64,000 nucleotides of DNA from Bacteroidia bacterium (GTDB lineage: Bacteria; Bacteroidota; Bacteroidia; CAILMK01; JACPUW01), in NCBI GenBank assembly GCA_049115495.1, contig JAGDZV010000001.1, positions 370,947 to 434,946 on the forward strand. Direction: 5' to 3'. The notes under the pieces were generated by a model that was given only the letters and a program-made list of their open reading frames with translations, had not been told where the DNA came from and searched no databases. Positions 20,052-45,000 of this stretch are shown here, one piece after another. Position numbers and translations under genes: made by a program. Within the stretch, counting starts at the first letter, position 1, and each line of letters starts with the position of its first letter.

Positions 20052-20057
20052 TATGCA

Positions 20058-22371: not shown

Positions 22372-22879
22372 GTGATATGTTTATTCTTTGTAATTTCTTC
22401 TTAAGCTCTTGACGTGCTAAGAAAATACGACTCTTAACCGTGCCAAGTGGCAAATCAAGTTCGTCAGCAATTTCTTGATACTTAAATCCTTCATAATGTC
22501 TCATGAATGGCACTCGGTACTCATCTGGTAAACCCGCAACAATCTTCATAAGATCGTCCATTACTAATTTACCTTGTGCTCTGTTCCCTTCGCTCTGTTG
22601 GTTTGAGTCAAGATAAAAACTGTTTTCAGTTCCGTCTTGGGTAATTCTCATTTTGGTTTTACGACGGTAGTTGTTAATGAAGATATTCTTCATTATAGTA
22701 TAAAGCCACGCTTTGATGTTGGTTCCCTGTTCAAATTTGTCCTTGTTGCTCAAAGCTTTGAACATAGTCTCTTGCAAGAGGTCGTGGGTGTCTTCTAGGT
22801 CATTGGTAAGATTCAATGCGTATGGCTTCAAAAAATTTTGGAGGGCTATTACTTTAGTTTGAAACTCTTGTGTTGACAT
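22358..22879 (-). CDS. ECF-type RNA polymerase sigma-70 factor.
   Basis: Region 2 (DLLQETMFKALSNKDKF...KAWLYTIMKNIFINNYRR) and region 4 (EYRVPFMRHYEGFKYQEIADELDLPLGTVKSRIFLARQELKK) are present. The start MSTQEFQ at 22879 is supported by a candidate -7 box 14 nt upstream; the longest ORF start is 22930. The 3' end overlaps the crtI start by 14 bp. Confidence 0.75.
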   Translation of the reverse strand: MSTQEFQTKVIALQNFLKPYALNLTNDLEDTHDLLQETMFKALSNKDKFEQGTNIKAWLYTIMKNIFINNYRRKTKMRITQDGTENSFYLDSNQQSEGNRAQGKLVMDDLMKIVAGLPDEYRVPFMRHYEGFKYQEIADELDLPLGTVKSRIFLARQELKKKLQRINISHAAA

Positions 22880-22899
22880 GTGTTTAACTTTTGATGATT

Positions 22900-22967
22900 C
22901 AAACCTAAACAAAAAATTCAGACGTACCAAATTTTTGTTTAACTATTGACCCGCCTATGTTAAACAA
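22900..22967 (-). promoter_or_regulatory. Candidate Bacteroidetes-type promoter of the sigma/crt operon, with a perfect inverted repeat abutting it. The -7 element is TAGGTTTG (22907..22900, minus strand) and the -33 element is TTG (~22930..22928). The inverted repeat is TTGTTTAAC-N15-GTTAAACAA (22935..22967).
   Basis: Read directly from the sequence. It matches the Bacteroidetes sigA consensus TAnnTTTG/-33 TTG from established knowledge. The 9-bp perfect inverted repeat is very unlikely to be chance in an AT-rich context. Confidence 0.3.
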
Positions 22968-23173
22968 AGTTCGATTTAGATGTATATACATTGATTTTAA
23001 ACATAGGGTATATACTCTGTTAACGCATTTTAACGAACTAAAAGGTATATACAGCTAATGCTAATAGCATTTTCACAAGCTGTAATTATGTTTAACATAT
23101 GCAAATCCCAACCTAAACAAAATGAGCTTAGTTTAAAATTTGAGCCTATTGGTGTCCATTCTATATTTGAATT

Positions 23174-26020: not shown

Positions 26021-26563
26021 ATGAAAGGAGTAGTATTTACCGAGTTTCTAGAGTTAGTTGAAGAAAAATTCGGATATGAAGTGGCTGATCACATAATTGA
26101 AACAAGTAATTTACCAAACAAAGGAGCTTACACCGCTGTAGGCACCTATCCATTTGGTGAGTTAGCTACCATGCTGGGTAAGCTTAGCGAGCACACAAAA
26201 ATTCCAGCTTCAGACCTATTAGTGGCCTTTGGTCATCACTTATTTAACACATTTATTAGGCTTTATGGACACTTTTTTGAAGGTATCAAAGATTCGTTCG
26301 ATTTTCTCACGAACATTGAAGGCTACATACATGTAGAAGTAAAAAAACTATATCCTGATGCTGAATTGCCAAGTATAAAAACGGAACAAATTGATGATAA
26401 AACACTCATTTTGCATTACGTGTCAAAAAGAAAACTGGCACATTTAGCCTTTGGTTTAATTGAGAAATCACTTGAACACTTTAAGCAAAAGGCAAACATT
26501 AAAATGGAAAATAAAGATGATTCGGGTGAGAATGTAACCATAACAGTTGAGCTAACAGATTGA
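26021..26563 (+). CDS. hnoX: H-NOX (heme nitric oxide/oxygen binding, HNOB) domain protein, a stand-alone gas sensor.
   Basis: It aligns with T. tengcongensis H-NOX. MKGVVFTEFLELVEEKFGYEV vs MKGTIVGTWIKTLRDLYG. The proximal-His region NIEGYIHVEVKK vs MMDEVHLQLTK. The Y-x-S-x-R motif ILHYVSKRKLAHLAFGLIEKSLEHFK vs EMEYVSKRKMYDYFLGLIEGSSKFFK. The stop overlaps the next gene's ATG (ATGA). Confidence 0.85.
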   Translation: MKGVVFTEFLELVEEKFGYEVADHIIETSNLPNKGAYTAVGTYPFGELATMLGKLSEHTKIPASDLLVAFGHHLFNTFIRLYGHFFEGIKDSFDFLTNIEGYIHVEVKKLYPDAELPSIKTEQIDDKTLILHYVSKRKLAHLAFGLIEKSLEHFKQKANIKMENKDDSGENVTITVELTD

Positions 26564-29040
26564 GTAGCGAAGTTGACATATTAAAAAGAAGACTTGAAAG
26601 AGAGCGATTGGCGCGAAAAGAAGCCGAGCGAATTCTTGAAGAACGCTCGCTTCAGCTATACCATGCCAACGAAAAGCTCATTGAAATAAATCAAAACCTT
26701 GAAGAGAAAGTAGAGAAAAGAAGCAAAGAGCTTTTTATTCAAGAAAAAAACTACCAACAAGTAGTAGAAAATGTTCCTGATATAATCTACAAGGCTGACG
26801 CTGACGGGAAATTCATTTTTGTAAATAAAAACGCCGAAGAAATTACAGGGTATTCTGAAAAAGAGCTTTTGCAAATGCACTACATGCAATTGATAAAAGG
26901 AGACCATGTTGAGAATGTTCAGGCCTTTTATTACCAGCAGTACCTTGAAAAGGTTTCCAAATCATATTTAGAATTTCCGATTTTAACTAAAGAGCAAAAG
27001 CTTGTTTGGATTGGACAAAACGTGCAATACAATTACAAGAACAATGGTGAAATTGAAGAAGTATTTGCCATTGCCCGTGATATTACAGAGTTTAAATATG
27101 CCAATGAGCAGCTGGCCATAAGTGAAGAAAAATATCGAAGCATAATTGAGAACTTACACTTGGGCCTTTTAGAAACTGATGTTGAAGGTATAGTTACTAA
27201 GGTTTATCCTAAGTTTACTGAACTTACTGGCTATGCTCCACAAGATCTTCTTAACAAAGACCCTAAAAAAGTACTTTTAAAAAATGATGCAGACCGCCAA
27301 CTTGTTGTTGAACAAGAAAAACTAAGAATACAGAAAAAGGCAAGTGCATACGAAGCACCCTTGGTTAAAAAGAATGGCGAAACCATTTGGGTAATTATTA
27401 GCGCCGCTCCTATTTTCTCAAGAGAAGGTGAAATTATAGGAACCATTGGAGTTCATTTCGATATTTCGGAACGAAAACAAATGGAAGAAGACCTTAGAAA
27501 CGCTAGACATGAAGCCGAAAGCGCTCAAAAAGCCGAGCAGTTGTTTTTGGCCAATATGAGCCATGAAATTAGAACTCCGCTTAATGCTGTAATAGGCATG
27601 GCACATTTGCTATATGATTTGTCTTCAACTCAAGAGCAAATAGAGTATTTAGATATAATTAAAAACTCTGCTAACCTTTTAAAAGGGATAATTAACGATA
27701 TACTTGACATAAGTAAAATTGAAGCAGGTAAACTTGAGTATAACGAAAGTGATTTTTTAATAGCCGAACTGATTAAATCTCTTAGCAAAACCTTTGAGCT
27801 TAAAGTACAAGGCAAGCCCATTGAAGTTAAGTCTGAAATTGACGATCTTCTAAAAAACCAGGTAATTAAAGGTGATAGTTTACTTTTAAATCAAGTGCTT
27901 CTAAACTTATTAAGCAATGCTGAAAAGTTTACGAGTAAGGGCGAAATTGGCCTAAATGCTCAAGTGCTTAATAACACACCAGACCGCATAGATCTTCAAT
28001 TTATGGTTTATGATTCGGGAATAGGTATTAGCCCAAATAGAATTGACTCAATTTTTGAAAAATATGAGCAAGCCAATCAAGAAACCAAGATGAAATATGG
28101 CGGTACTGGACTGGGATTGGCAATAACCAAAAAAATAGTTGAGTTTTTAGGCGGTCATATTTCTGTAGAAAGCACAGAAAATATTGGCAGCGTGTTTAAG
28201 GTAAACTTAGGTTTTGAGAAATCAGCAGATAGCGCTGAAGCAAAAATTGAAGTTAACACAGAAAAAGAACAAACTAAAGTATATAAAGATGTATTGGTGG
28301 TTGAAGATAACGCCATGAATCGCAAATATTTAGGCGAGATTTTTAAACGATTTGACTTAAGCGTTGAATACGCCTTTGACGGCCAAATTGCCATTGAAAA
28401 AACGCAACAAAAGGTGTTTGATATTATTTTAATGGACCTGCAAATGCCTGTTAAAGATGGTTTTGAAGCAACGGTAGAAATTAGGAATAAATTAAACCCT
28501 AACCACAAGACCGAAATTGTGGGTTTAAGTGCGTTTGCAACTGATGAAGTAATTAAAAAATGTAACATGGCCGGAATGAATAATTTCATTTCTAAACCAG
28601 TTACCCCAAGTCAAATTATTGACTTGCTTAATTTAAGACAACAGCAACCCGTAATTGATTCAACTGGAATAGACAAAAGGAGCCGACTTGACAAAAATGT
28701 ATTGGAAGAACTCTATTTCGGTGATGAGAGCTACGCTTTTGAAATGTTCGATCATTTTCTTGGGGTAGCCGACGAACAGATTAATCAACTCAAAACAACT
28801 ATAAACGAGCAAAACTGGAAAGAGCTTAGAAGGTTAATTCATAAAATGAAACCTGGATTTTCTATGGTTGGCCTTCCCGGACTTCAAGAAATCGGATCAA
28901 AGCTTGAAACGGCTTGTGAGCTTGATGCCGAAAAAGAAATTCTAGAAATTTCTAAAACACTATTTATTGAGTTTGATGCTAGTATAAAAGATGTAGAAGA
29001 AGAACACAAACGATTAAAAGAATCTATTAATAGTAAATGA
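26560..29040 (+). CDS. hnoK: Hybrid sensor histidine kinase with an N-terminal coiled-coil, two PAS domains, HisKA, HATPase_c, a REC receiver and a C-terminal Hpt domain.
   Basis: H-box FLANMSHEIRTPLNAVIGM. N/G-boxes LLNLLSNAEKF, YGGTGLGLAI. Receiver DVLVVEDNAMNRKYL...ILMDLQMPVKDG...KPV. The Hpt-like IHKMKPGFSMVGL has a phosphorylatable His. There are no TM segments, so it is a cytoplasmic sensor. Confidence 0.85.
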   Translation: MSSEVDILKRRLERERLARKEAERILEERSLQLYHANEKLIEINQNLEEKVEKRSKELFIQEKNYQQVVENVPDIIYKADADGKFIFVNKNAEEITGYSEKELLQMHYMQLIKGDHVENVQAFYYQQYLEKVSKSYLEFPILTKEQKLVWIGQNVQYNYKNNGEIEEVFAIARDITEFKYANEQLAISEEKYRSIIENLHLGLLETDVEGIVTKVYPKFTELTGYAPQDLLNKDPKKVLLKNDADRQLVVEQEKLRIQKKASAYEAPLVKKNGETIWVIISAAPIFSREGEIIGTIGVHFDISERKQMEEDLRNARHEAESAQKAEQLFLANMSHEIRTPLNAVIGMAHLLYDLSSTQEQIEYLDIIKNSANLLKGIINDILDISKIEAGKLEYNESDFLIAELIKSLSKTFELKVQGKPIEVKSEIDDLLKNQVIKGDSLLLNQVLLNLLSNAEKFTSKGEIGLNAQVLNNTPDRIDLQFMVYDSGIGISPNRIDSIFEKYEQANQETKMKYGGTGLGLAITKKIVEFLGGHISVESTENIGSVFKVNLGFEKSADSAEAKIEVNTEKEQTKVYKDVLVVEDNAMNRKYLGEIFKRFDLSVEYAFDGQIAIEKTQQKVFDIILMDLQMPVKDGFEATVEIRNKLNPNHKTEIVGLSAFATDEVIKKCNMAGMNNFISKPVTPSQIIDLLNLRQQQPVIDSTGIDKRSRLDKNVLEELYFGDESYAFEMFDHFLGVADEQINQLKTTINEQNWKELRRLIHKMKPGFSMVGLPGLQEIGSKLETACELDAEKEILEISKTLFIEFDASIKDVEEEHKRLKESINSK

Positions 29041-29708
29041 ATTGCGTTGTAGTAGATGATGATGAAATGATGCTAAACTCCATAAAGAGGCTTTGCGAGA
29101 AGTCTGGTGTTTTCTCAGAAATCAATATTTTTAATGATAGCGAAGAAGCCGCTCAATTCATTTTTAACCGTCAGCCTGACGTACTTTTTCTTGATATTGA
29201 AATGCCCGGTATTAGTGGCATTGAACTACTCAAATCTTTTAACAAGATTGAGAATGTGATTGTAATTAGTGGTAAAACTGAATACGCATTTGAAGCTTAC
29301 CAGCTTAATGTAATAGATTATCTACCTAAGCCAGTAACGCTTCCAAGATTTTTGGCATCAATTGAAAAAATAAAACCAAAAACTGAAGAAAAGCCTGAAG
29401 AACTATACGTTAAGGTTGAAGGTAAGCTTACACGTGTACTGTTTAGTGAAATATTATATATTGAATCACTTACTGATTATATAAGGATTAATACATACAA
29501 CCATAAACACGTTGTTTACAGCTCTTTAAAACATATTGAATCAAAGCTCCCCTCTAAAATGTTTATGAAAGTACACAGGTCCTACATTGTAAACATGAGC
29601 AAAATCAAAGACATTGACGAAAACCTAATTGTTATTGAAGACGCCGTTATACCTGTAAGTAGAGCAAACCAATCTGAACTAATTAAGCGCCTAAACTTGT
29701 TGAAGTAG
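29037..29708 (+). CDS. LytTR-family response regulator (REC plus LytTR DNA-binding domain; AlgR/AgrA class).
   Basis: Receiver VVVDDDEMML...LFLDIEMPGISGIEL. C-terminal LytTR YVKVEGKLTRVLFSEILYIESLTDYIRINT...KVHRSYIVNMSKI. The start overlaps the kinase stop (ATGA). Confidence 0.85.
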   Translation: MNCVVVDDDEMMLNSIKRLCEKSGVFSEINIFNDSEEAAQFIFNRQPDVLFLDIEMPGISGIELLKSFNKIENVIVISGKTEYAFEAYQLNVIDYLPKPVTLPRFLASIEKIKPKTEEKPEELYVKVEGKLTRVLFSEILYIESLTDYIRINTYNHKHVVYSSLKHIESKLPSKMFMKVHRSYIVNMSKIKDIDENLIVIEDAVIPVSRANQSELIKRLNLLK

Positions 29709-29736: not shown

Positions 29737-30420
29737 ATGAGAGTTGCAGTCATTATTCCTGCGTTTAATGAAGAAAATGCTATTGCAAATGTGGTGAGAG
29801 ACATTCCTTCAGAGATTGAGGCAACCATATTGGTTTGTAATAACGGATCTTCTGATAGAACAGCTGCAGTTGCTAAAGAAGCAGGTGCTCTTGTACTTAC
29901 TGAAAACCGCAAAGGCTACGGATATGCATGCCTAAAAGGAATGAACTATATAGAGAATCACCTACCTAATACCGATGTGGTTGTTTTTATTGATGGTGAT
30001 TACTCTGATTACCCAGAAGAAATGCCAAAACTTTTGAATGAAATTGAAGCAGGATTTGACATAGTTATAGGCTCACGTGCACTTGGTCAATCAGAAAAAG
30101 GATCTATGACTATTCCTCAGCGCTTTGGTAATTGGCTATCTGGAATACTTATAAGGTTAATTTGGGGTGTTAAGGTTACTGACCTAGGGCCATTTAGAGC
30201 TATGAAATGGAAGCAGCTTCAAAAACTAAACATGCAAGACCCTACTTACGGCTGGACGGTTGAAATGCAGATAAAGGCCATAAAAGGTAAAATGGCCTAT
30301 AAGGAGATAGCCGTAAATTACCGACAGAGAATTGGAACAAGTAAAGTATCTGGAACGGTAAAAGGTGCCATCTTTGCCGGAACAAAAATTCTGTATACCA
30401 TTTTTAAGTATGCTTTTTAA
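29737..30420 (+). CDS. GT2 glycosyltransferase of the polyprenyl-phosphate sugar synthase type (Dpm1/ArnC/GtrB-like).
   Basis: MRVAVIIPAFNEENAI (GT-A N-terminus), DxD VVVFIDGDYSD, ~227 aa and soluble. This is typical of dolichyl/undecaprenyl-phosphate hexose synthases. It starts 28 bp after the LytTR regulator. Confidence 0.75.
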   Translation: MRVAVIIPAFNEENAIANVVRDIPSEIEATILVCNNGSSDRTAAVAKEAGALVLTENRKGYGYACLKGMNYIENHLPNTDVVVFIDGDYSDYPEEMPKLLNEIEAGFDIVIGSRALGQSEKGSMTIPQRFGNWLSGILIRLIWGVKVTDLGPFRAMKWKQLQKLNMQDPTYGWTVEMQIKAIKGKMAYKEIAVNYRQRIGTSKVSGTVKGAIFAGTKILYTIFKYAF

Positions 30421-31876
30421 TACGCTCGAGCTAATTACCCTGGGTGTTTACTCAGTGGCCATTCTATATTTATTTGTATTTAGCTTGAGCCAAATTCATC
30501 TCACTTGGGCTTATATAAAAAGAAAAAAGAATGCACCAAAAAGCCACTTTTCTAGAGTGTATAAGCCAGTGGTTACCATTCAACTACCTATTTACAACGA
30601 ACCCACCGTTGTGAAAAGACTTATTGAGCAGGTATCTGAAATTAATTATCCAAAAAACTTACTTGAAATTCAAATACTAGACGATTCTACTGATAAGACA
30701 AGCGCCATTATTAAGGATGTTGTTGCACAGCTTCCGAAAGATTTAGATGTAACTCATATTCAGCGTACCAATAGAAAAGGATTTAAAGCGGGCGCACTTA
30801 AAGAAGGTTTAGTTACTGCTAAAGGTGAACTTGTAGCAATTTTTGACGCTGACTTTTTGCCCGAAAAAGATTTCTTAGAAAAAACTGTTGGATTTTTTGA
30901 AAATGAACACCTTGGTGTGGTTCAAACAAAATGGGGGCACTTAAACGAAGATTATTCTTTACTTACAAAAACTCAAGCTTTTGGGCTTGATGCCCACTTT
31001 TCAGTTGAGCAAAAAGGTAGAAACATAGAAAACTGCTTTATCAGTTTTAATGGCACTGCAGGTATATGGCGAAAAGCATGTATTGAAGATGCAGGTGGGT
31101 GGCAAAGCGACACTTTAACCGAAGATTTAGACCTTTCTTTTAGGGCGCAAATAAAAGGCTGGAAATTTTTGTTTCTTGAAGAAGTGATATCGCCTGCTGA
31201 GCTCCCAATTACTGTTGGCGCATATAAATCTCAACAGTACCGTTGGAACAAAGGAGCCGCAGAAACACATGTTAAACTATGGAAAAAGGTTAAGCAAAGC
31301 AACATTACGGGCAAAGTAAAAGCCCACGCATTAATGCAATTGGTTAAAGGGATAGGGTTTATTGCCAGCTTTTTGCTCACCATTACTAGTGTGCCCATTC
31401 TGTATTTCAAATCAGCAGGAAATAGTACCAATACAACCATGCAAATTCTATCATTTACACTATTGTGTATTGTTGCATTAGTAATGTTCTATTTAGCGTC
31501 GAGCATAAGCCATCAAAACTCAAGAAAAGGTGGAATTATAAAATTTTTAAGAGAGTTCCCCGTATTTATTGCTATCTCACTAGGCACAACCCTACACAAT
31601 ACTGTTGCCGTAATTGAAGGCTATCTAAAAATTAAGACACCTTTTGTAAGAACACCAAAATTCAACGTATCAAATGGTAGCAAAGTTGTTGCAGAAGGAA
31701 ACATTACTTGGCTCACTTTTATTGAAGGGGTATTGGCCATATATTTTGTATTTGGGATTTTTCTTTCTTTCAAGCTACTAGATTTTACGTTTTTACCTTT
31801 TCATATTCTTTTGTTTTTAGGCTATGGGTATTTCTTTTTTTATTCCATAGCGCAACGCTATAATTGGGCGCGATAA
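30410..31876 (+). CDS. Processive membrane GT2 glycosyltransferase (CesA/NodC/HAS-like, with D,D,D,QxxRW motifs).
   Basis: N-terminal TM. ILDDSTDKT (D,D), AIFDADF (DxD), TED, and QQYRWNKG (QxxRW). Five or six C-terminal TM segments. The ORF extends to 30365; the start MLFNTLELITLG at 30410 is preferred. Confidence 0.75.
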   Translation: MLFNTLELITLGVYSVAILYLFVFSLSQIHLTWAYIKRKKNAPKSHFSRVYKPVVTIQLPIYNEPTVVKRLIEQVSEINYPKNLLEIQILDDSTDKTSAIIKDVVAQLPKDLDVTHIQRTNRKGFKAGALKEGLVTAKGELVAIFDADFLPEKDFLEKTVGFFENEHLGVVQTKWGHLNEDYSLLTKTQAFGLDAHFSVEQKGRNIENCFISFNGTAGIWRKACIEDAGGWQSDTLTEDLDLSFRAQIKGWKFLFLEEVISPAELPITVGAYKSQQYRWNKGAAETHVKLWKKVKQSNITGKVKAHALMQLVKGIGFIASFLLTITSVPILYFKSAGNSTNTTMQILSFTLLCIVALVMFYLASSISHQNSRKGGIIKFLREFPVFIAISLGTTLHNTVAVIEGYLKIKTPFVRTPKFNVSNGSKVVAEGNITWLTFIEGVLAIYFVFGIFLSFKLLDFTFLPFHILLFLGYGYFFFYSIAQRYNWAR

Positions 31877-33208
31877 TTGGGTTTAAAAGTTAAAATAGCA
31901 CTTTTTGCGTCTATTGCCTTTAGTATTGGAGCTTATTTTTCAATTCAACATGTTATTAATCCAATACATGTTTATGAGCTCATAGGAGCCTATTTACTGG
32001 CATTTGCTGCATATGCGACTTTTTTAAATCAAAAAGTAAAACTTAACCTTTGGCATGTATTTGTTTTGGGTTTGGCTTTTAGGCTGTTTATGTTTTCTTG
32101 GCCAACACTTTCTGATGACTTTTACAGATTCTACTGGGATGGCAAGCTCTTAGCTGAAGGTACTAATCCATATGCAACAATCCCTAAATCAATATTTGGA
32201 TTAGAGGTAAATAATATTAAGGTAGCTCATAAAACCTTATACGACTTCTTAAACTCAAAGGACTACTTCTCAGTTTACCCGCCTTTTTTACAGTACATAT
32301 TCGGTTTTTCTGCATTAGTTGGTAATAGCCTAAATGGCTTTGTTGCAGTATTTAGCATCCTTGTGCTCTCGGCCGAAGTTGGCACCTTCTTTTTGGTCAG
32401 AAAAATCCTTCTTATAAAAAACCTTCCTCTAAAAAACATAGCTATTTACTGGCTTAACCCATTAATAGTTATTGAGCTAAACGGAAATTTACATGGTGAG
32501 GTATTTATGATTTTGGCCATTGCGGCCGCCTTATATTTCTACAACACGAAGAAATTCCTAATTACAGGCTTGGCCCTTGGCTTAGCAGTTTTAACCAAGC
32601 TCTACCCTATTCTTTTTATCCCTTTCTTTCTATTACCATTTAATAAAAAACCAGCATTAGTAATATTACTTGGCGTGGTAATAAGTGTATTTGCATTGGG
32701 AAGACCTTTAATTAATTTAGAGCTTGCAGCAAACATTTTTGAAAGTATTCAATTGTATTATGCCAAATTTGAGTTTAATGGCAGTATTTATAACCTTTTG
32801 AAACAAATTGGAATAAAACTTACAGGCTATAATCAAATAAATCTCATTGGCAAAGTGTTAGGACTACTTACTTTAGTTGGTTTTGGTGTATTGTATTTCT
32901 TTAAAGTAAAATCTCCTTCAAAATTTACAATTGAAAGAAACATTTATTTAGGAATGATTCTTTTTTACCTGTTAAGCACTACCATAATGCCTTGGTATTT
33001 GAGCATTATAATATTTGCTAGTGTTTTTAATAAATCTAAGGTCGGAATCGTTTGGTCGGCCTTAGTAATACTAACCTATTCGGCATTTTCAAATACTCAC
33101 TTTAAAGAAGATTCGGCCTTAGTTGCCGTTGAATATTATGCATTGGCCGCGGTAATAATTTTTGAACTTAGAAACTACTTCAGACAAAAGATATTTGAGT
33201 CTAATTAA
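31877..33208 (+). CDS. Polytopic integral membrane protein, possibly a GT-C-fold glycosyltransferase (DUF2029/ArnT/PMT-like).
   Basis: More than ten predicted TM helices. An acidic motif sits in the first extracytoplasmic loop (PTLSDDFYRFYWDG), as in GT-C enzymes that use lipid-phosphate sugar donors. The start is 1 bp after the previous stop. The family assignment is inferential. Confidence 0.4.
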   Translation: MGLKVKIALFASIAFSIGAYFSIQHVINPIHVYELIGAYLLAFAAYATFLNQKVKLNLWHVFVLGLAFRLFMFSWPTLSDDFYRFYWDGKLLAEGTNPYATIPKSIFGLEVNNIKVAHKTLYDFLNSKDYFSVYPPFLQYIFGFSALVGNSLNGFVAVFSILVLSAEVGTFFLVRKILLIKNLPLKNIAIYWLNPLIVIELNGNLHGEVFMILAIAAALYFYNTKKFLITGLALGLAVLTKLYPILFIPFFLLPFNKKPALVILLGVVISVFALGRPLINLELAANIFESIQLYYAKFEFNGSIYNLLKQIGIKLTGYNQINLIGKVLGLLTLVGFGVLYFFKVKSPSKFTIERNIYLGMILFYLLSTTIMPWYLSIIIFASVFNKSKVGIVWSALVILTYSAFSNTHFKEDSALVAVEYYALAAVIIFELRNYFRQKIFESN

Positions 33209-33779
33209 GCAAATACGCGGGTCTTGGTTTTCGGGTATTTACAAGGCCACCATTCTGCCAAGGGCCAGAAAAAAAGCTAAGCTATTAAAACCTATGCTCA
33301 ATCCAAAATCTAAAATCTTAGAAATAGGAAGTGGTAATTGTGGTTTGGCTTATTTGCTTCAGAAAGATTTTCATAGCGTTACCGCAACTGATATTGTTGA
33401 TTGCTCTTTTTTCAACTCAATAAAACCTACTGTTTTTAATGGCGAAGCACTTCCTTTTAAATCAAAGTCATTTGACTATGTTTTAATTATTACCGTTTTA
33501 CACCATACAACAAAACAATTGAGTCTGTTAAATGAAGCCAAGCGTTTAGGTAATGAAGTTATTGTGATGGAAGATCTATATACCAATAAATTTGGCCAGA
33601 GAATTCTTCATTTTACAGATAGCTTGGTAAATCTTGAGTTTAAAGGACACCCACATACCAATAGAACTGATGCAGGCTGGAGAGTTGTGTTCAAAAGACT
33701 AAACTTGAAAATTACTGATACAGTTAAACTCAGAACCCTCTTTTTTTTCAGGCAAATAATTTACATGCTAAGATCCTAA
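33162..33779 (+). CDS. Class I SAM-dependent methyltransferase.
   Basis: ILEIGSGNCGLAYLL (motif I, GxGxG) ... VLIITVLHH (motif post-II) ... VIVMED. The true start is probably internal (for example M at 33294), because the ORF overlaps the upstream gene by 47 bp. Confidence 0.55.
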   Translation: MNLETTSDKRYLSLIKQIRGSWFSGIYKATILPRARKKAKLLKPMLNPKSKILEIGSGNCGLAYLLQKDFHSVTATDIVDCSFFNSIKPTVFNGEALPFKSKSFDYVLIITVLHHTTKQLSLLNEAKRLGNEVIVMEDLYTNKFGQRILHFTDSLVNLEFKGHPHTNRTDAGWRVVFKRLNLKITDTVKLRTLFFFRQIIYMLRS

Positions 33780-33939: not shown

Positions 33940-34152
33940 ATGAAGAAGAACATGGGAAGCACCGATAGAATTGTAAGGTTAATAATTGCAATTGTAATAG
34001 CCGCACTCTATTTCACAAACGTTGTAAGCGGAACTTTAGGGCTTATTCTACTTGTACTGGGTACAATTTTTGCCCTTACATCTTTTGTAAGCTTTTGCCC
34101 TTTATACTTGCCCTTTGGCTTGAGCACTTGTAAAACTGAGAAGACTTTATAG
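33940..34152 (+). CDS. DUF2892 (YgaP-like) small membrane protein.
   Basis: 70 aa. DRIVRLIIAIVIAALY...GLILLVLGTIFALTSFVSFCPLYLPFGLSTC matches the DUF2892 consensus (two TM, CPxY...G..T). Confidence 0.6.
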   Translation: MKKNMGSTDRIVRLIIAIVIAALYFTNVVSGTLGLILLVLGTIFALTSFVSFCPLYLPFGLSTCKTEKTL

Positions 34153-35046
34153 AGCGTCTAAAAAGCCGTTTAAGTCTTCGAGATTTGAAACAAAAATTAC
34201 ATTAGGCCACTTTATTTGCACCTTTGACTCTGCAAGTCTTGTACCTGCAATTATGAAAGTTTTGTTAGGGAATAAAGAGCTCAGGGTATCAATATATCCG
34301 GTTACTTCTTCAATTCCAGTTTCATAGGTTAAAACGGTAAAAAAATAATCAGGATTGTAAACATTTGATATAACCGAAAGGTCATCGACCGGAACGGTTT
34401 GGCCTAAATAAACAGTTTTATGACCATTTACTTTAAATAAGTAATTGGCGAATAAGAGTCCAATTTCGTGCAATTCACCTTCTGGTAAAAACAAGGCAAA
34501 CTTGCTTGGATTTTCCACTTTTTTTGGCAGCATATTATCAGCAGCCACAATAAGCTTGTGTCTTATCAAATTAGAGATGAAATGCTCTTGTGCAGGTACT
34601 ATACTTCCTGTTTGCCAAAGGATTCCGATCCGATACATGAAAGGATAAATTACCTTAGTAACTGCATGTGTAAAGCCCAACTTTATTACCACATTGCTCA
34701 ATATCTTTTCAAACTTATCTTCATCAAGATCAAGCATGGTAATGGTGAGAGCATTTAGCAAATCACTATCTGCCTCAACTTTTTCAGTTACAGTCATTAC
34801 CCTACTGTTTATCTCTTGTCTGGTAAGTTCTGCAATTTTAGAAATACGCATGCCGTTATTATTGAGCATGGCAATATTGAGTACATGTTTTAAATCTTCC
34901 TCGTCAAAATACCTGATATTGGTACCTGTTCTTTTGGGCTGAATAATTGAATAGCGCTGCTCCCAAATACGCAGAGTATGGGCTTTGATACCTGTGAGCT
35001 GTTCAAGGTCTTTCATTGAAAATGTGCCTTGTTGCTTTTCTTTCAT
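34147..35046 (-). CDS. MerR-family transcriptional regulator with a C-terminal cobalamin-binding domain (CarH/LitR-type AdoB12-dependent light sensor).
   Basis: N-terminal MerR HTH (FSMKDLEQLTGIKAHTLRIWEQRY). A B12-binding four-helix bundle with the Wx9EH motif (ILWQTGSIVPAQEHF). A Rossmann B12-binding domain with E/DxHxxG (LPEGELHEIGLLF) and a downstream ...SNV...GG-like region. Confidence 0.7.
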   Translation of the reverse strand: MKEKQQGTFSMKDLEQLTGIKAHTLRIWEQRYSIIQPKRTGTNIRYFDEEDLKHVLNIAMLNNNGMRISKIAELTRQEINSRVMTVTEKVEADSDLLNALTITMLDLDEDKFEKILSNVVIKLGFTHAVTKVIYPFMYRIGILWQTGSIVPAQEHFISNLIRHKLIVAADNMLPKKVENPSKFALFLPEGELHEIGLLFANYLFKVNGHKTVYLGQTVPVDDLSVISNVYNPDYFFTVLTYETGIEEVTGYIDTLSSLFPNKTFIIAGTRLAESKVQIKWPNVIFVSNLEDLNGFLDAL

Positions 35047-35079
35047 TGCTTTTGCAGCTATTAATTAATTCTAAAATTT

Positions 35080-35721
35080 TTAGGCAAACGCCAAAAACAT
35101 GGTTATAAAAAAGGTAATCAAGTAGATAAACACCCACTTGGCCATAATGTTTAGCCCTATTTGATTTAAAGTAAACCAAATGGTATTTAATATAGAAGCA
35201 ATCACAAACCAAGCCACATAATTACGGAATGGCACCGTGTTGTTTTGCCATTGCCAAAAATCAAAGGCCATGGCTACAGGCTCCATAATTACATCCATTA
35301 CCACCATAATTAATGCAGCTATTAAGCCCAAAACAACCTTTGGCAGCTTAATTTTTCTTATAACATAAACAGATGTATAACACATTAAAAGCCAGTTAAC
35401 GCCCATGGTTATTGGAACATTAAAAATTTTGAGGCCTAGAGTTTCTCCGTAATGATATTCTCCAAAAATAATTCCCGTTTTTACGCCTGCCACTTCAACA
35501 AAAAAGCCAACAAGAAAAACCAAGACCATCCATAGTGCTTCTTTAGTATTCCATTGTTTATGGTGTAACAACAAAAAACCTAAAACAAACCATAGGTTAA
35601 CGCTACTTAAGCCTAATGTAATTTCATGAAATTGAGATGTTAAAATGCCAACGAAACCGACAATTTCAATTATAAGAAAAAGCCAAATTGAATACTTTCT
35701 GTATGTATCTATTTTTTGCAA
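35080..35721 (-). CDS. Polytopic membrane protein, putatively of the carotenoid biosynthesis protein family (PF04240, CruF-like carotenoid 1',2'-hydratase).
   Basis: ~213 aa with 6-7 TM, and conserved His/Glu/Trp residues (LLLHHKQWN, FFVEVAGVKTG...GEYHYG, MEPVAMAFDFWQW). The assignment rests on overall resemblance and on its position next to the CarH-like regulator. I could not verify by alignment. Confidence 0.4.
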   Translation of the reverse strand: MQKIDTYRKYSIWLFLIIEIVGFVGILTSQFHEITLGLSSVNLWFVLGFLLLHHKQWNTKEALWMVLVFLVGFFVEVAGVKTGIIFGEYHYGETLGLKIFNVPITMGVNWLLMCYTSVYVIRKIKLPKVVLGLIAALIMVVMDVIMEPVAMAFDFWQWQNNTVPFRNYVAWFVIASILNTIWFTLNQIGLNIMAKWVFIYLITFFITMFLAFA

Positions 35722-35817
35722 GTTGGTATAACCCCGCCTTTAGTCAAAGGTTTAGTAAAAGCAAAAATCTACTTGAATAAGTATTACTTTGTTTTGAGCC
35801 AGTTAAAACCTGTGGAA

Positions 35818-36525
35818 ATGAGCAACACAAATAATACAGCATGCCAGCATTGCGGAAAGGATATAAAAATTAAGCAAATCACCTTAAAATCACTCTTTTA
35901 TGACACAATCAATGTAATTTTTAATCTTGAGAAAGGATTCTTATTTACCATAAAAATGTTGTTTATAAATCCTGGTAGTGTTCTTAATGGTTACTTAAAA
36001 ACGACAGATAGATATCGTTACTATAACCCTTTTAGATATGCTTTTATTCTTGCAACGGCTTCAGTTTTCTTTTTTGTGTACTTTGACCTTTATGAAAAAG
36101 CCATAACCATAGGTGCCCTAAACCTTGAAGCTGATAACAAAGAAGGAGTTGAATTTATTGAGAAATATGCCAATTTTATTTCATTATTGATTATCCCATT
36201 TTTAAGCTTAGGGAGTTTTTTGTTCTTTAAATCTCACAATTATGCCGAACACCTGGTGGCTAATTTCTTTGTTTTCGGACAAACTACGTTAATTGGCTTT
36301 GTTTTCCTACCACTTTACCTAGCACTTCCAAAACTGATTTTACAGCAGCAATCAATCTCGTCGCTCACACTAATTATTTACGGTGTTTTATTTTATAAAA
36401 GTGCGTTTAAACAGAGTTGGCTAAAAACCATTTTTAAATTTTTAGCTGCAATGATCATCGGTTTTGTTTGTGTTGTTTTAGTAGGTGCCTTAATTGCGAT
36501 GGTTATTTCAGCTGTTAACTCTTAG
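35818..36525 (+). CDS. DUF3667 domain-containing membrane protein.
   Basis: N-terminal Cys pair CQHCGKDI followed by ...YYNPFRYAFIL... and several TM segments, matching the DUF3667 pattern. The ORF extends to 35716. Confidence 0.5.
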   Translation: MSNTNNTACQHCGKDIKIKQITLKSLFYDTINVIFNLEKGFLFTIKMLFINPGSVLNGYLKTTDRYRYYNPFRYAFILATASVFFFVYFDLYEKAITIGALNLEADNKEGVEFIEKYANFISLLIIPFLSLGSFLFFKSHNYAEHLVANFFVFGQTTLIGFVFLPLYLALPKLILQQQSISSLTLIIYGVLFYKSAFKQSWLKTIFKFLAAMIIGFVCVVLVGALIAMVISAVNS

Positions 36526-37479
36526 AATTGAATCTATTATCAATTTACCATGATGCCTACTGTTTTCTATAAAAATCTTGCTTGTGTTTTTTCCTGTAAG
36601 AACCGTTCCTGCTAGAAATAAGCCCTTAATATTAGACTCTAAGGTAGATTCATCAAATTGAGGAATAAAGGTTACACCATCATATTGAACCCCTACTTTT
36701 TTAAGAAAACTTACGTCAGGGTGATAACCAATCAAGGCCAAAACATGGTCAGCTTTTATTTGAATCGTACCATCAGCCGTATTAACTTCAACTTCACCTT
36801 GCCAAATTTCTTTTAAATTGGCATTGAAGTAGGCTTTAATTGACCCTTCTTTAATTCTATTCTCAAGATCAGGTTTAACCCAATACTTAATTTTATGATA
36901 TAATTCTTTTTTACGATGAGCCAAGGTAACATTGGCTCCATTTCTATAAAGATCTAAAGCAGCCTCGCTAGCCGAATTTGAACCTCCAACTACTAAAACG
37001 TTTTGCCCTACGTAAGGATAAGGTTCGTCATAAAAGTATTTTACATGAGAGAGGTCATCACCTTTTACATTGAGTCTATTATGCTTATCATAGTAACCCG
37101 TAGCAATCACTACATTTTTGCCTTTAAATACACCTTTTTCAGTTTCAACGTAAAATTCATCATCGTTTTTCTTAACATCAATTACTGTATTGTATAATGA
37201 GAAATTGAGATTAAAATAGGCCACCAGCTTTGTGTAATATTTTAGCGCTTCTTGCCTTGTGGGTTGTTTATTTATGGCCGGAAAAGGTATTCCGCTCAAT
37301 TCTAATAGTTCAGAAGTTGAAAAAAAAACAGCGTAGGTGGGATATCTCCTAATTGTATTTACCAAGCTTCCCTTATCAATCATCAAGCAACTGAGGTTAT
37401 TCTTTTTAGCTTCAATGGCAACCGAAAGACCAGCTGGGCCAGCACCAACTACAATTACATCGTAATCTTTATTGTTCAT
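36508..37479 (-). CDS. YpdA-family FAD/NAD(P)-dependent disulfide oxidoreductase (putative bacillithiol-disulfide-reductase-like, thioredoxin-reductase fold).
   Basis: YDVIVVGAGPAGLSVAIEA (FAD GxGxxG), a second Rossmann VLVVGGSNSASEAALDL (NAD(P)), and a C-terminal GLFLAGTV. ~323 aa and no CxxC pair, which is typical of YpdA. Confidence 0.65.
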   Translation of the reverse strand: MNNKDYDVIVVGAGPAGLSVAIEAKKNNLSCLMIDKGSLVNTIRRYPTYAVFFSTSELLELSGIPFPAINKQPTRQEALKYYTKLVAYFNLNFSLYNTVIDVKKNDDEFYVETEKGVFKGKNVVIATGYYDKHNRLNVKGDDLSHVKYFYDEPYPYVGQNVLVVGGSNSASEAALDLYRNGANVTLAHRKKELYHKIKYWVKPDLENRIKEGSIKAYFNANLKEIWQGEVEVNTADGTIQIKADHVLALIGYHPDVSFLKKVGVQYDGVTFIPQFDESTLESNIKGLFLAGTVLTGKNTSKIFIENSRHHGKLIIDSILRVNS

Positions 37480-39068: not shown

Positions 39069-42000
39069 ATGCTAAAGCATACCCCTAAGCATCTAATTCT
39101 ACTTTTTATTTCACTTTTTAGTGCGCCATTGTTAAAGGCTCAAATGTCAGGTACTTATTCTATTGACAAAACGAGTAGTGCAACTAGAAATTATACATCT
39201 TTTACTGCGGCGGTAAATGCCCTTAACTCTGTAGGGGTTAGTGGAGCAGTAAAGTTTGAAGTAGCAAATGGAAACTACAATGAGCAAATAACATTGCTTT
39301 ATGTTTCGGGATCTTCCACCACAAACACCATCACTTTTGTTGGTAAAGATTCGAGCAAGGTTTCACTAAACTATAATTGCTCTCAATACGAAGCTGTTAT
39401 AAAGGTAAATGCTGCTGCCAACTTTGTATTTGAAGGCATGACCATTAAGAGCACAAATGCTAGTTATGGATACGGGGTGCATATTACATCAAGTGCCGAA
39501 AACATAAGCATTAGAAATTGTAGAGTAGAAGTATCGGCGACTAGCAATGTACCAGTAGAATGCGTACCTGTAAATGTGGCTGGTGGAACCGTTACTACAA
39601 ACGGTGATAATGGAGAAAAAATTGAAGTAACAAACTCAGTTTTGCGAGGTGGCTATTACGGATTAAACATTAGAGGAACTAATAATAGCTTATTAAGCGA
39701 AGGTTTTACTATTGAAAACAATCATTTTTATCAGCAACGTTTTTATCCTGTTTTTGCTGTTTTTGCCAAAGATCTCAACCTTAATGAAAACGTTATTGAC
39801 AGCACCAATTTATTTTATTCCTACTCTGTTTATACAGACCAATGTGCTGGAGGAAGCATTATTGGCAATAGGATTTATGCTGGAAGATTTGGGCTTTATC
39901 TCAGACTGCACAACTATTATAATCGCGCAGACTCATTGGTAATTAGCAACAACGAAATAAGTGATTTTGATGACCCAAGTTATCAATCCGGAATTTATGC
40001 TGTTGCTTCATATAATATTTCTGCTTACCACAATACCATTAGAACTGATGGAACGGTGAGCAACTTCAATTATTCATGTATTTATTTATCTAACCCGTAC
40101 AATCATCGCATATTAAATAATAACCTTGTTGCTGAAGGAAATAGTAGTGTGCTTTTTTTAGGAAATGGAAGCCTTGGAAGCACCTACATTGATTACAATA
40201 ATTACAGTACGACTGCAAATGGAGGATTTGTGAGCTGGCAAGGTACATCATACTCAAACCTAGCTGATCTAAAAGCAGCAACAAGTAGCCAAAATCAAAA
40301 CTCCATTAGCGAAAATCCGCAGTTTAGTTCTAAAAGAAATTTATCACCTAATACACCAGGTTTAAACAATAGAGCAAGAAATGGTTTAAGCTCATTTGAT
40401 ATTTTAAGAAATGTAAGACCAAAGTTTCCTGATGTTGTTTCAGACATAGGTGCATATGAGTATTATGTAGATTCAAATGATATTGACATAATTGCTATTA
40501 CAAGCCCATTGATTGGCCAATTGGGAAATAATGATCTGGCAATTGTTCTAAAAAACAATGGAAGTAAACCTTACCGAGACTCGGTGTTTGTACAATACAA
40601 AATCAACAATGGTTCATGGACTAAGGATACATCAGTATACACATCATTAGCTATTGGAGCCGCTGACACATTTTATTTTACCACAAATTGGAACATTACT
40701 TCATCAGGCACCTTTACTGTATGTGCCGATATTTCACCTGTAGTTCCAGGTGACCCTGACTCTTTAGTAGGTGAAGAATATTGTGAGACAAAATGTGTAG
40801 GTAGGTCTGGAACATTTACCATTGACGCCTCTGGTAATGGTGATTATACCACTTTTACCCAAGCCATAAATTCTCTTACTTGCGGCATTGCTGGCCCAAT
40901 TACTTTTAAAGTTAAACCAGGAAATTATAATGAGCGATTAACAATTACACCTGTTCTAGGTGCATCGGTACAAAATCTTATAACTTTTGAAGGAGCGCAC
41001 AAAGACAGCGTAACATTAAACTATAATGGAACATCGTCTCTTCCAGCTTCTGTTTTAATTGATGATGCAGACTTTTTAACTTTTAAAAATCTAACTATCA
41101 ACAACCAAGGCAATCAAGTTTCTTGTGGATTTTGGCTTAGAGAAGATGTTAAAAATGTAAGAATAGAAAACTGCCAAATATTTTTAGACTCGGTTGCTAG
41201 TATTTATAGTTCTGCTGGTATTTTGATTGCCAACTCACTTCCTACGTGGTCATGGACAATCCCAGGTAATACTTCAAATAATTTGGTAATCAAGAATAAC
41301 CTTATAGTTGGTGGTAGCAGCGGAATAAGAATTAATGGATCTGGTGCTACAGCCACTGCTCAAAAACTTGAAATTGAGAATAACATAATTAGAAAATATT
41401 ACTATCAAGGCTTAAATGCCGCTTATGTAAGTGAATCTAAATTTAAAAAGAATCATATTACTGGTCCAAGGTTAATTAGTGCCATAGGTTTTGGAATGTT
41501 TAATTGTCAAAACGATAGCGTTGATGCGAATTATATTCAAGGTGGAAGATTTGGACTCTATTTATCAAGAGAGAATTTTGACAACAGGAATACATTTACG
41601 GCTATTACCAATAATATGATTACCAATTTGATTGATGCAAATTATCAAATTGGCTTAATGGCATCTCTGGGCTATAATCTATCTATTTATCACAACTCAA
41701 TTTGGACTAGCCATTCTTTTTCTTCTCCATACTACTCAGGAATGAACCTTTATTACTGCCAAAATAGTTTTGCAAAAAACAACGCTATTAAAGCTACAAA
41801 TGGCGGGATGGTTTTTTCAAAGTACTATGGAAATATTAGCCGATCGAATATTGACAACAACAACTACTACGGTGAAGGTGCTGCAAAATATTATCATGAT
41901 GGTTTAACATTTACTGACCTTGGAACCTATAAAAGCATTAGAACTAACTTTAATTCAAATAGTCTAGAAGGTGAACCCAATTATACATCAATTACCGACC

Positions 42001-45000
42001 TACATGCTAGTGGTGCTCAGCTTAACAATAAAGGCGTAAACGGACTTGGCGTTGATAAGGATTATGATGATGAAGACAGACCTTTTTCTCCTGATAAAAA
42101 GCGCGATATTGGGGCTGATGAATATTATGTAAGTCCTTTCGATCTTGATCTTGTTTCGCTAGACTCTCCTTTGGTACCAGTTATTGGCCAAAATGAAGTG
42201 AAGATAATTTTGAGAAACGCTGGTATAAAAGACCTTGTAGATGACACCATGGTTGTGAGCTATTTGGTTGATGGCAATCTTGAAATTAGAGACACTGTAA
42301 TAATATCTTCACTAAAGCAAAATGAGAGTTTTACTTACACTTTTAGTAAAACTTGGAATATTTCAATTGGTAAAACGTACAAGTTGTGCGCTCAACTTGA
42401 CACCTTTTTTAAGCCCGATCCTGACTCACTAATTAATCAACAAAAGTGTGCATCTATGTGCCCAGGAGCAAAAGGCTCCTATACAATTGATGCTTCAGGG
42501 GGTGGCGATTACACCTCATTTAAAGCGGCACTTAATGCCCTTAATTGTGGAATAAATGGCCCTGTAACCTTTAACGTAAAAAATGGCACATACAATGAAA
42601 GGCTGGTAATTAATGAAATTATTGGCGCATCAAATCAGAATACAGTTTCATTTATTGGCGAAAGCAGAAAAGGAGTTATTCTTAATTACACCGGAGTAAG
42701 AGATAGCCAAGAAGTAATTCACCTTGAAGGCGCCGATTACATCTCTTTTGACCGAATGACAATTAAGAACAATAGCCAATGGTATAGCAGAGGTGTAAGA
42801 ATAAGCACGAAGGCAGATTATAACACTTTTAGTAATGTATCTTTTGATTTACCAAGTAATGCTACTAGTTGGAGTACATCTAATGTTTACATTTCAGATG
42901 AAAACCTTTCAACCTTAGGCGATGCCGGTAATTTCAATGTATTTACCAATTGTTCTTTTGAATATGGCTACTTCGGTGTAAGGCTTTATGGTATTGGAAA
43001 TACATCACTTAATTACGGAAATGAGTTTAATAACTGTAGCTTTAGAAACCATAGAGCATTTGGGATTTATGCCCTTTACCAAGGTCAATTAAAGGTAAAT
43101 GACTGCTCATTTGATTCTTTACAGCTTGATTTTTACCAAATTTATGAGAACCGATGTAGTGAGAGTATTATTACAAACAACTTAATTAAAGATGGTAGAT
43201 ATGGTATCTATCAGATTTATGAGAACTACTATTTTCAAGAAGAAACTTCAGAAATTTCGAACAACCTAATTAGCGGACAAGACTTTAGCACTGATATTTA
43301 TGGAGTGGACCTCTATTTATGTTATAACATAAAGTTCTTTCACAACAGCTTAATGGTAAATAAGGGCACAAGTGGTGCCGCTGTAAGGTTTAGGTTTGGT
43401 AATGGGCACGACATTAGGAATAATTCATTTTCAAAATCTACAAATGCTGAATTGTTTTCAAATACGAATTCTTCTTTTTCAGAAATCGACTTCAATAACT
43501 ACTACTCTGGTAGTTCAAGCAACTTTGTAAATTATAATGGTACTGCATATGACGACCTTCAAAAATGGAGTAATGCAGTAAGTGGTTTTAACAGAAACTC
43601 GAAAGAAGGTGATCCCGGTTACAACTCGTCTTCAGACCTTACTATTGACCCAAAAAGCAAACAACTGGCCAATTGGGGTTCAATTTCAACTGGTATAGGC
43701 AGTGATTTTGAAGGTGATATACGAAACCCTCAATCGCCAGATGTAGGAGCAGATGAATTCTCAGACTTATATGATATTGGGGTAAGTAGCATTCTTAGTC
43801 CACTAAGTAATTGCGAACTCAGCAACTCAGAAACCATAACTATTGAAATAGAAAATAAAGGGAATATTGCCTTGCCAAGCGGCGAGCTTATTCCTGTGGC
43901 ATACTCAATTGACGGCAGTTCAGCTCAAGTTGACACATTTATTTTAAGCTCCAATCTGTCAAAAAATGGAAAGGTACAGTTCACCTTTTCACAAAAGGCT
44001 GATTTCTCAGCATTTAAAAGCTTTAACCTTAAAGCCTACACCGATATTGCCAATGATTCATTACGGACAAATGATACGCTCGCTGTTGTTAGAAGTTCAT
44101 TTGAAAATCCAACTGCGGACTTTAGTATTGACAACATTGCTTGTAGTAATGAAGATGTAAACTTTTCTAATTCATCTTCTACTTCAGTAGCAACAATAAG
44201 TGCCTATAATTGGAATTTTGGCAATGGTTTAGCATCAACAGCCCAAAACTCAAAAACGAGCTATAGCAATGATGGCAATTTTAGCATAAAGCTAATTGTA
44301 ACTACCACAAACGGTTGTAAAGACTCAATAACTAAGAGTATTACCGTTTACCCAAAACCATCGGCAAGCTTTACCAGCAGCAACCTTTGTTTTGGAGATT
44401 CGGCCATTTTTACAAATACTTCGAATATTGCCACTTCAATTGGCGCTACATTTAATTGGGATTTTGATGATAACACCACATCTACAAAAAGAAGCCCCAA
44501 ACATATGTTTGCGACTGCCGATGATTTTGATATAGAATTCATTGCAATAAGTGCCAATGGATGTAAAGACACGGCAACAAGCACTATTCAGATATCACCT
44601 AACCCTGTTGCAAGCTTCAGCTTTGCAAATTCATGCAAAGGCGATTCAAACATCTTCAATAACACATCAACAATTCCAAATGGGTTTACACCAACTTACA
44701 GTTGGAAATTTGGTGATGGTAATAGCTCAAGCAATAAAAATCCAAAATATGTTTATGGCTCAATTGGAAACTATACTATTGAACTGACGGCTTCATTAGC
44801 CAATGGATGCTCAAATAGCGTTGCCAATTCACTTAATGTTTTTAGTAAACCTCAGCCGGCATTTACCGTTTCAAATGGCTGTCAAGGCGACTCAATATTA
44901 TTTACTGATAATTCGGTAATTCAATTAGATACAATTAAGAATTATGAGTGGTTTTTTGACGATGGAAATATTTCAAGCTTAGAGAACCCAAAAAACCTTT

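Follow-up and report, generated by a model that had tools for sequence, protein, structure and literature searches.

Does the B12-type MerR regulator encoded beside a carotenoid gene in a Bacteroidia genome look like a light sensor, and if so, which genes would it control? The window, by which we mean the entire 64-kb stretch analyzed here (contig JAGDZV010000001.1, positions 370,947 to 434,946), contains two adjacent open reading frames (ORFs) that raise this question. We confirmed both from the window sequence at the coordinates claimed for them in a preliminary description of this DNA:

34147-35046, minus strand: carH/litR-like regulator gene, 299 aa, with a MerR-type winged helix-turn-helix, a four-helix bundle (Wx9EH) and a Rossmann B12-binding domain
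35080-35721, minus strand: cruF-like gene, 213 aa from a TTG start, a PF04240 polytopic membrane protein and predicted carotenoid 1',2'-hydratase

The cruF-like gene lies upstream, with 33 nt between its stop (35080) and the regulator ATG (35046), and the two genes probably form a cruF-carH bicistron with the cruF-like gene first. The pair is an ordinary, uncharacterized member of known families (class I CarH/LitR and PF04240 CruF) with the known LitR-LitS logic. In our reading, to which we assign a probability of roughly 0.7, a class I adenosylcobalamin (AdoB12) CarH/LitR repressor is co-transcribed with a CruF hydratase and acts as a LitR-LitS-like switch on a carotenoid operon headed by an extracytoplasmic function (ECF) sigma factor gene, located 11 kb from the regulator gene.

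The regulator and its conserved neighborhood

Pfam searches placed MerR_1 (PF13411, 56.5 bits) and B12-binding_2 (PF02607, 37.9 bits) in the regulator, both above the gathering cutoffs. CarH proteins are defined by a MerR domain with RxWERRY, a four-helix bundle with Wx9EH and a Rossmann domain with D/ExHxxG-x41-SxT/V-x22-27-GG, the His of D/ExHxxG being the lower axial ligand (PMC9304148). Residues 26-32 of the regulator read RIWEQRY, and RxWExRY occurs in 120/120 homologs. The Wx9EH motif is intact (W144-x9-E154-H155, ILWQTGSIVPAQEHF) and is likewise kept in all 120, and E191-L-H193-E-I-G196 contains His193, the predicted axial ligand, which is invariant across the clade within GE[LM]HE; the preliminary description had quoted both motifs exactly. 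Four SignatureFinder elements, GxxW, EH, GxxH and GxxxP, set photoreceptor B12 domains apart from enzymatic ones (PMC11796333), and all are present in the regulator as GILW, EH, GELH and GQTVP.

The best solved-structure relatives by sequence are Thermus thermophilus CarH/LitR (3whp and 5c8d, E ~1e-15, residues 6-227). We built an AlphaFold2 model of the regulator from a 19-sequence alignment, with a mean predicted local distance difference test score (pLDDT) of 84.5. The top Foldseek match of this model is full-length T. thermophilus CarH (TtCarH; 5c8d, ~296 columns), onto which the five-stranded alpha/beta B12-binding domain superposes with a template modeling (TM) score of ~0.8 and a root-mean-square deviation of ~3.3 Å. 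Compared with TtCarH (PDB 5C8D/5C8E/5C8F), the regulator has the same three-module architecture, fold, RxWExRY, Wx9EH, ExHxxG and GxxxP motifs, and linkage to carotenoid genes, although the two proteins are only ~22% identical. Published LitR classes assign proteins that retain the bundle and the Rossmann domain to class I, the AdoB12 type (PMC9758184); with a bundle and a Rossmann fold in its model, the regulator is assigned to class I. As an annotation, the AdoB12-type light-sensing repressor proposed in the preliminary description stands: the sequence and fold hallmarks of class I CarH/LitR are present, that of the Rossmann motif in part. B12 binding, a response to light and repression are what these hallmarks would predict.

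A database search returned 7,858 homologs of the regulator at E<=1e-10, several of them already labeled "light-induced transcriptional regulator" by the Joint Genome Institute (JGI). The closest cultured relatives belong to the Cytophagales (Algoriphagus, Indibacter, Salmonirosea; 51-55% identity). To compare gene order, we annotated by tblastn 80 loci fetched with the regulator alignment and nine more from exact-protein look-ups, identified below by L numbers. We scored 83 loci, after dropping duplicates L003 and L005 and leaving out the look-up loci L086-L089, which were added after annotation.

Of 79 testable loci, 41 have a co-directional cruF gene no more than 1.2 kb upstream of the regulator; an ECF sigma gene heading crtI-crtB is found at most 1.2 kb downstream in 50/74. 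Both neighbors occur in 23 loci, the sigma gene only in 25, and neither in 10. The remaining combination, cruF only, occurs in 13 loci (Fibrella, Larkinella, Spirosoma, Fibrisoma, Runella, Arundinibacter), and the stand-alone cruF-regulator pair is found in Spirosomataceae too. What had been described as an unusual regulatory architecture for Bacteroidetes is in fact common, as the counts of 41/79 and 50/74 indicate.

In the window's own clade (L001, L086-L089), regulators are 70-82% identical and the order of exonuclease, YpdA-like reductase, opposite-strand DUF3667 gene, cruF and regulator is kept. Only for L001 and L087 does the fetched locus extend to the sigma-crt operon, which lies 5.5 kb away in both. 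Part of the larger separation in the window is due to an inserted block of H-NOX, hybrid kinase and LytTR genes. In the window, the Algoriphagus-type cluster is present in dispersed form; the flexixanthin cluster of Tao et al. 2006, as cited in PMC10784355, is the reference for this type and A. sanaruensis CP012836 (L002) our example. The gene set is the same (cruF, crtZ, MerR/B12 regulator, ECF sigma, crtI, crtB, fused crtYcd, crtW), with a regulator 51% identical to that of the window. The Algoriphagus cluster is contiguous, whereas in the window the genes are split into three loci over 27 kb (8956-35721, ~26.8 kb), in agreement with the three places given in the preliminary description.

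The second ORF of the pair matches PF04240 (Caroten_synth) over residues 52-207 with 94.2 bits against a cutoff of 25; a match to this profile had been set beforehand as the test of the CruF assignment. The protein is identical to a 213-aa protein from a metagenome-assembled genome (MAG) in NCBI that is annotated "carotenoid biosynthesis protein". To our knowledge, all characterized PF04240 members, from Deinococcus, cyanobacteria and haloarchaea, are carotenoid C-1',2' hydratases. With the CruF hydratases of Deinococcus and Synechococcus PCC 7002 and the haloarchaeal bisanhydrobacterioruberin hydratase, the window protein has in common the PF04240 domain, a polytopic membrane topology and carotenoid linkage. 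In L004, a 57%-identical relative, cruF is overlapped by a bona fide gene for CrtD, the 1-hydroxycarotenoid 3,4-desaturase (598 bits vs a cutoff of 500), and in Algoriphagus-type loci cruF is contiguous with crt genes. Such crt linkage, of which the CrtD-cruF overlap is one example, supports a 1',2'-hydratase role for the cruF-like protein. A hydratase role for PF04240 is also backed by genetics in Rhodothermus marinus (PMC7414004).

An inverted repeat associated with the regulator

The context genes cited in the preliminary description, a crtW-like gene at 8956-9660 and a crt operon, are real; with its sigma factor gene, the operon extends across 18338-22930. The sigma factor gene and the operon that it heads comprise the following genes:

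22358-22879, minus strand: ECF sigma factor gene in a LitS-like position, 173 aa from the corrected ATG, with Pfam Sigma70_r2/r4_2/ECF matches
20857-22371, minus strand: crtI, first gene of the 18338-22371 crt operon
20058-20894, minus strand: crtB, same operon
19347-20051, minus strand: fused crtYcd (lycopene cyclase), same operon
18793-19350, minus strand: glutathione peroxidase gene (gpx; PF00255, 139.6 bits), between the lycopene cyclase gene and crtZ
18338-18793, minus strand: crtZ-like hydroxylase gene, same operon

An unbiased k-mer count across regulator-to-sigma intergenic regions recovered TGTTTAA and TTAAACA in 52/52 of them. Together these 7-mers make up an inverted repeat whose arms start 23 nt apart in 42 pairs and 24 nt apart in 4. 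The extended consensus of this candidate operator is TTTTGTTTAA-N16-TTAAACAAAA, with perfect dyad symmetry over 10-bp arms. In the 1.40 Mb of fetched loci, 51 of the 53 exact copies fall in the 9% of sequence that flanks the regulator gene. The repeat adjoins a MerR/B12 gene in 43/83 related loci and precedes a sigma gene in 47 instances. It also occurs without an adjacent sigma gene: L061 has it directly ahead of crtI, and L036, L041, L055, L059 and L074 have it immediately ahead of the regulator gene itself. Its persistence beside the regulator in the absence of a neighboring sigma gene argues for an operator of the regulator and against a promoter of the sigma factor itself. We found no prior report of the repeat in the literature searched.

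In 20/47 copies the Bacteroidetes -7 box, TAnnTTTG, falls at a constant place within the spacer, and this location of the box inside the operator is consistent with promoter occlusion. Many loci have a second operator copy 44 bp upstream. The half-site contains TnnACA, the core of all characterized CarH repeats, including those of TtCarH (PMC9304148). The operator family is common to the window and Algoriphagus, with a spacer of N17 in the former and N16 in the latter. Three copies precede the sigma gene in the window:

22936-22966, no strand assigned: operator O2, exact TGTTTAA-N17-TTAAACA, upstream of the ECF sigma-crt operon
22881-22911, no strand assigned: operator O1, one-mismatch TGTTTAG-N17-TTAAACA (gene orientation), which stops 1 nt short of the true sigma ATG
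23089-23119, no strand assigned: operator O3, one-mismatch copy 153 bp upstream of O2

O2 is the only exact repeat in the 64 kb, with 0.02 expected. Sites with at most one mismatch number five in the window compared to 0.2 in shuffles; three of these cluster at 22881-23119, and the other two are in coding DNA with poor flanks. O1 and O2 are spaced 55 bp apart, and a 55-bp pair recurs in L087. The position of O1 depends on the start of the sigma gene. Homolog N-termini point to ATG 22879 (MSTQEFQTKVI), an N-terminus conserved in L001 and L087, so the mechanically called TTG at 22930 is probably wrong. The 51 nt between these two codons hold one of the three operator copies, and with ATG 22879 as the start, all three lie upstream of the sigma gene.

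The preliminary description had also suggested that the regulator acts at the promoters of cruF and crtW. This is not supported by the conserved operator candidate, which was found only before the sigma-crt operon; no copies lie upstream of cruF-carH or crtW in the window. Near the regulator's own locus, the only operator-like site is a one-mismatch copy with an N16 spacer and poor flanks (36384-36413), within the 3' end of the DUF3667 gene and ~660 bp upstream of cruF, which is probably a chance occurrence. Two shorter motifs were set aside. AGGCGGG, present upstream of both the sigma gene and cruF, was dropped with 3 occurrences in the window against 1.98 expected, and TTGTTTAA alone is uninformative (13 observed, 12.8 expected), only the paired repeat being informative.

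A further candidate element lies directly before the gene pair:

35729-35754, minus strand: TAAAC-N17-GTTA, a speculative ECF-type promoter candidate for cruF-carH, with 7 nt between its end and the TTG start

A related pattern, [CA][TG]AAAC-N17-GTT, is found ~10 nt before the start in five orthologous cruF upstream regions (the window and L086-L089), and TAAAC-N17-GTCA occurs upstream of crtW at 9727-9752. A scan for sigma-70 promoters and terminators around the gene pair gave background level, with a consensus that does not fit Bacteroidota.

Alternatives to the proposed light-controlled operon

Several observations weigh against a light-responsive CarH-type switch. Its top NCBIfam match is CarH (NF052513), but at 93.7 bits it falls short of the equivalog cutoff of 400; judged by sequence, this is the level of a distant clade. 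The two B12 profiles proposed in the preliminary description fared differently: PF02607 matched, as above, whereas PF02310 had no match at E<=0.01 in the Pfam profile search. The Rossmann motif is degenerate, with ELHEIG present but SxL replaced by TVL and GG by AG. The residue following the Trp of Wx9EH is Gln or Val clade-wide (Gln in the window regulator) in place of His132, the upper ligand of the light state in TtCarH, and the R176/D201 salt bridge of the TtCarH dimer is replaced by Leu192/Thr217. Searches of the window found no B12 uptake or synthesis genes and, by Rfam scan, no cobalamin riboswitch or other RNA family; the literature searched contained no biochemical or genetic evidence on a Bacteroidota CarH/LitR. 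The low CarH score, the degenerate Rossmann motif and the loss of the His and of the salt bridge would suit a protein that binds B12 without sensing light, or one that is B12-independent like CarA, reporting cobalamin or another signal so that pigment is not light-regulated, and B12-independent relatives do exist (CarA and class II-V LitR; PMC9304148, PMC9758184). We consider this unlikely. The Trp, EH and axial His are invariant across the clade, whereas CarA lacks the Trp (PMC9304148); all four photoreceptor signature elements are present (PMC11796333); and class II-V LitRs lack the Rossmann domain that the regulator model has. Tight linkage to photoprotective carotenoid and peroxidase genes also fits light control.

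The DNA sites weigh against the switch as well. Characterized CarH operators are tandem direct 11-bp repeats, nnnnTnnACAn, that overlap promoter elements, three of them in the case of TtCarH (PMC9304148), whereas the candidate half-sites are inverted and 23-24 bp apart; further, window-wide matches to TAAAC-N17-GTYA are at chance (3 observed, 1.84 expected). The operator and the hydratase can each be read in another way. One could regard the inverted repeat as the -35/-10 promoter of an autoregulated ECF sigma factor, with the MerR/B12 protein acting elsewhere. ECF sigmas are commonly autoregulated, the repeat is directly upstream of the sigma gene in most loci, and its arms end in AAC and begin with GTT ~14-15 bp apart, loosely like ECF -35/-10 elements. 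We judge this improbable, slightly more so than the loss of light sensing, given that the repeat accompanies the regulator in six loci without an adjacent sigma gene, that a perfect dyad with 10-bp arms is expected of a dimeric DNA-binding protein and not of a promoter, and that phased duplicates 44 or 55 bp apart fit cooperative repressor binding. For the cruF-like protein, the question is whether it hydrates C-1',2' at all, or whether the pigments are plain bicyclic ketocarotenoids (canthaxanthin or astaxanthin type) or zeaxanthin. The protein scores below both CruF equivalog cutoffs (84.5 bits vs 154.7 for TIGR03460, 50.3 vs 300 for NF041333), is shorter at 213 aa than the archaeal model (248), and has no CrtD partner in the window; moreover, CruF activity in Bacteroidota has only been "speculated" (PMC10784355). 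The hydratase activity of the characterized PF04240 members and the translational overlap of the CrtD-CruF pair in L004 argue the other way, as does the co-occurrence of CrtW with CruF throughout the cluster set, a flexixanthin-producing genus included, in all but L017 (truncated upstream) and L066. A non-hydratase is about as unlikely, in our estimate, as a regulator that does not sense light.

Predicted pigments, neighboring genes and a model of the proposed switch

Going by the established roles of their families, CrtB, CrtI, CrtYcd, CrtW and CrtZ are enough to make 4-keto and 3-hydroxy beta-ring carotenoids. The window encodes all five, as the preliminary description had stated, with the ketolase gene at a separate location:

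8956-9660, minus strand: crtW-like beta-carotene 4-ketolase gene; best match NF045690, 248 bits, below the cutoff of 350

The crtW-like product is 51-56% identical to CrtW of Algoriphagus-type clusters. A perfect palindrome, TTGTAA-N5-TTACAA (9701-9717), is located 41 nt upstream of the crtW start, with two more TTGTAA copies nearer the gene. Its sequence is unrelated to the sigma-operon operator, and it could be a site for another regulator.

From its family assignment, CruF is predicted to add the 1'-hydroxy psi-end of monocyclic pigments, and together with CrtYcd, CrtW and CrtZ we predict monocyclic 1'-hydroxy-4-keto-3-hydroxy carotenoids. Flexixanthin additionally requires 3',4'-desaturation. 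A tblastn search with the L004 CrtD found no crtD in the 64-kb window, and a database search for a crtD of the source MAG returned only proteins of 50-58% identity, none tied to that MAG. Algoriphagus carries out the 3',4'-desaturation with a CrtI that matches the NCBIfam "bifunctional phytoene desaturase/3,4-desaturase" (CrtID) equivalog at 751 bits vs a cutoff of 640, and a separate crtD is predicted in Algoriphagus too (PMC10784355). The CrtI of the window is another paralog: it has ~30% identity to that of Algoriphagus and, at 365 bits, stays below the CrtID level. Because the window has no CrtD and its CrtI is not of the CrtID type, the earlier prediction of flexixanthin or 4-ketomyxol is tentative. 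The CrtB encoded beside this CrtI is 60-66% identical to Algoriphagus CrtB, and the crtI gene (20857-22371, minus strand) resembles a non-orthologous desaturase replacement inside a conserved operon.

The glutathione peroxidase gene was missing from the preliminary description. The order crtI-crtB-crtYcd-gpx-crtZ is repeated in L087 with the peroxidase at the equivalent position, whereas the Algoriphagus operon differs in having lytB and no peroxidase gene. The 18338-22371 segment is a predicted light-derepressed operon.

Other genes occupy the region around the two carotenoid loci. Between them, on the plus strand at 26021-29708, lies an apparent operon for an H-NOX (heme-NO-binding) protein, a PAS hybrid histidine kinase with Hpt and a LytTR response regulator; this block is absent from the corresponding position in L001 and L087, and L089 has a similar kinase-LytTR pair near the regulator. 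It is followed on the plus strand (29737-33779) by genes for a polyprenyl-phosphate-type family 2 glycosyltransferase (GT2), a processive GT2, a GT87/MptA-like membrane glycosyltransferase and a methyltransferase, a block conserved in L001, L087 and L089, where it likewise separates the regulator gene from the sigma-crt operon. We considered the glycosyltransferases at 29737-33208 as CruC/CruG-type enzymes and rejected this assignment, as they resemble polyprenyl-phosphate or processive GT2 and GT87 proteins and have no carotenoid-specific match.

On the other side of the gene pair, 36508-37479 (minus strand) encodes a YpdA-family putative bacillithiol disulfide reductase (434 bits vs an NCBIfam cutoff of 340). 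The YpdA gene is directly upstream of cruF in L001, L004 and L087-L089, and none was called in L086; the L004 copy seems to share an operon with the exonuclease gene, crtD, cruF and the regulator gene. Farther along, a 4,297-aa ORF spans 39069-51962 on the plus strand. The equivalent ~4,290-aa protein of the relatives has many PKD repeats, and its gene adjoins the DEDD exonuclease gene in L001, L004 and L086-L089.

Returning to the proposed light-responsive repressor, we hypothesize that in the dark the AdoB12-loaded regulator would oligomerize and occupy the three phased inverted-repeat operators (22881-23119), blocking transcription of sigma-crtI-crtB-crtYcd-gpx-crtZ. Green, blue or ultraviolet light would photolyze the Co-C bond, causing the oligomer to dissociate and the operon to be transcribed. 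Derepression would yield the core carotenoid enzymes, the peroxidase and the ECF sigma factor. By analogy with the LitR-LitS cascade of Streptomyces, the sigma factor may in turn activate the promoters of cruF-carH and crtW, which are unlinked to the operon. The oligomeric state and the sigma targets in this scheme are inferred. The sigma and crtI genes share 14 nt, and no anti-sigma gene lies beside the former, a configuration that fits control of the sigma factor at its transcription.

Streptomyces coelicolor LitR-LitS (PMC11519972) is alike in pairing a B12-type MerR protein with an ECF sigma factor lacking an adjacent anti-sigma gene, in having a regulator site at the sigma promoter (here a comparative candidate only) and in its carotenoid gene output. 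Unlike in Streptomyces, the window sigma gene is the first gene of a crtI-crtB operon, so that the core enzymes would be derepressed directly; the regulator gene is 11 kb away and probably co-transcribed with cruF, and sigma-dependent promoters are only hypothetical.

The inverted, phased operator may be a real variant of CarH recognition. Taken with the loss of His132 and of the Arg-Asp salt bridge, its geometry hints at a different assembly on DNA. A bolder possibility, which we put forward tentatively and consider doubtful as it stands, is that the Bacteroidota clade (>7,800 homologs) has a new recognition mode. The regulator would bind as dimers to inverted TnnACA half-sites spaced by 23-24 bp, and AdoB12-driven oligomers would link two such operators phased at 44 or 55 bp, equal to 4 or 5 helical turns, without the His132 bis-His lock or R176-D201. 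In the lineage of the window the sensor, its gene paired with that of a tailoring enzyme, would also control a distant sigma-led operon, possibly with feedback from the sigma factor.

For annotation, more precise names can be given to proteins that these genomes now list as "MerR family regulator" and "carotenoid biosynthesis protein". The CarH proteins of Thermus, Bacillus and myxobacteria use tandem repeats; the different geometry of the candidate operator extends the plasticity already reported for DNA recognition by CarH and could provide new parts for green-light optogenetics. With the peroxidase gene in the operon behind this operator, an antioxidant enzyme would come under the same control as the photoprotective pigments. 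Together, the sensor, the candidate operator with its register and the target operon provide a testable regulatory map for light-controlled pigment in environmental Bacteroidota.

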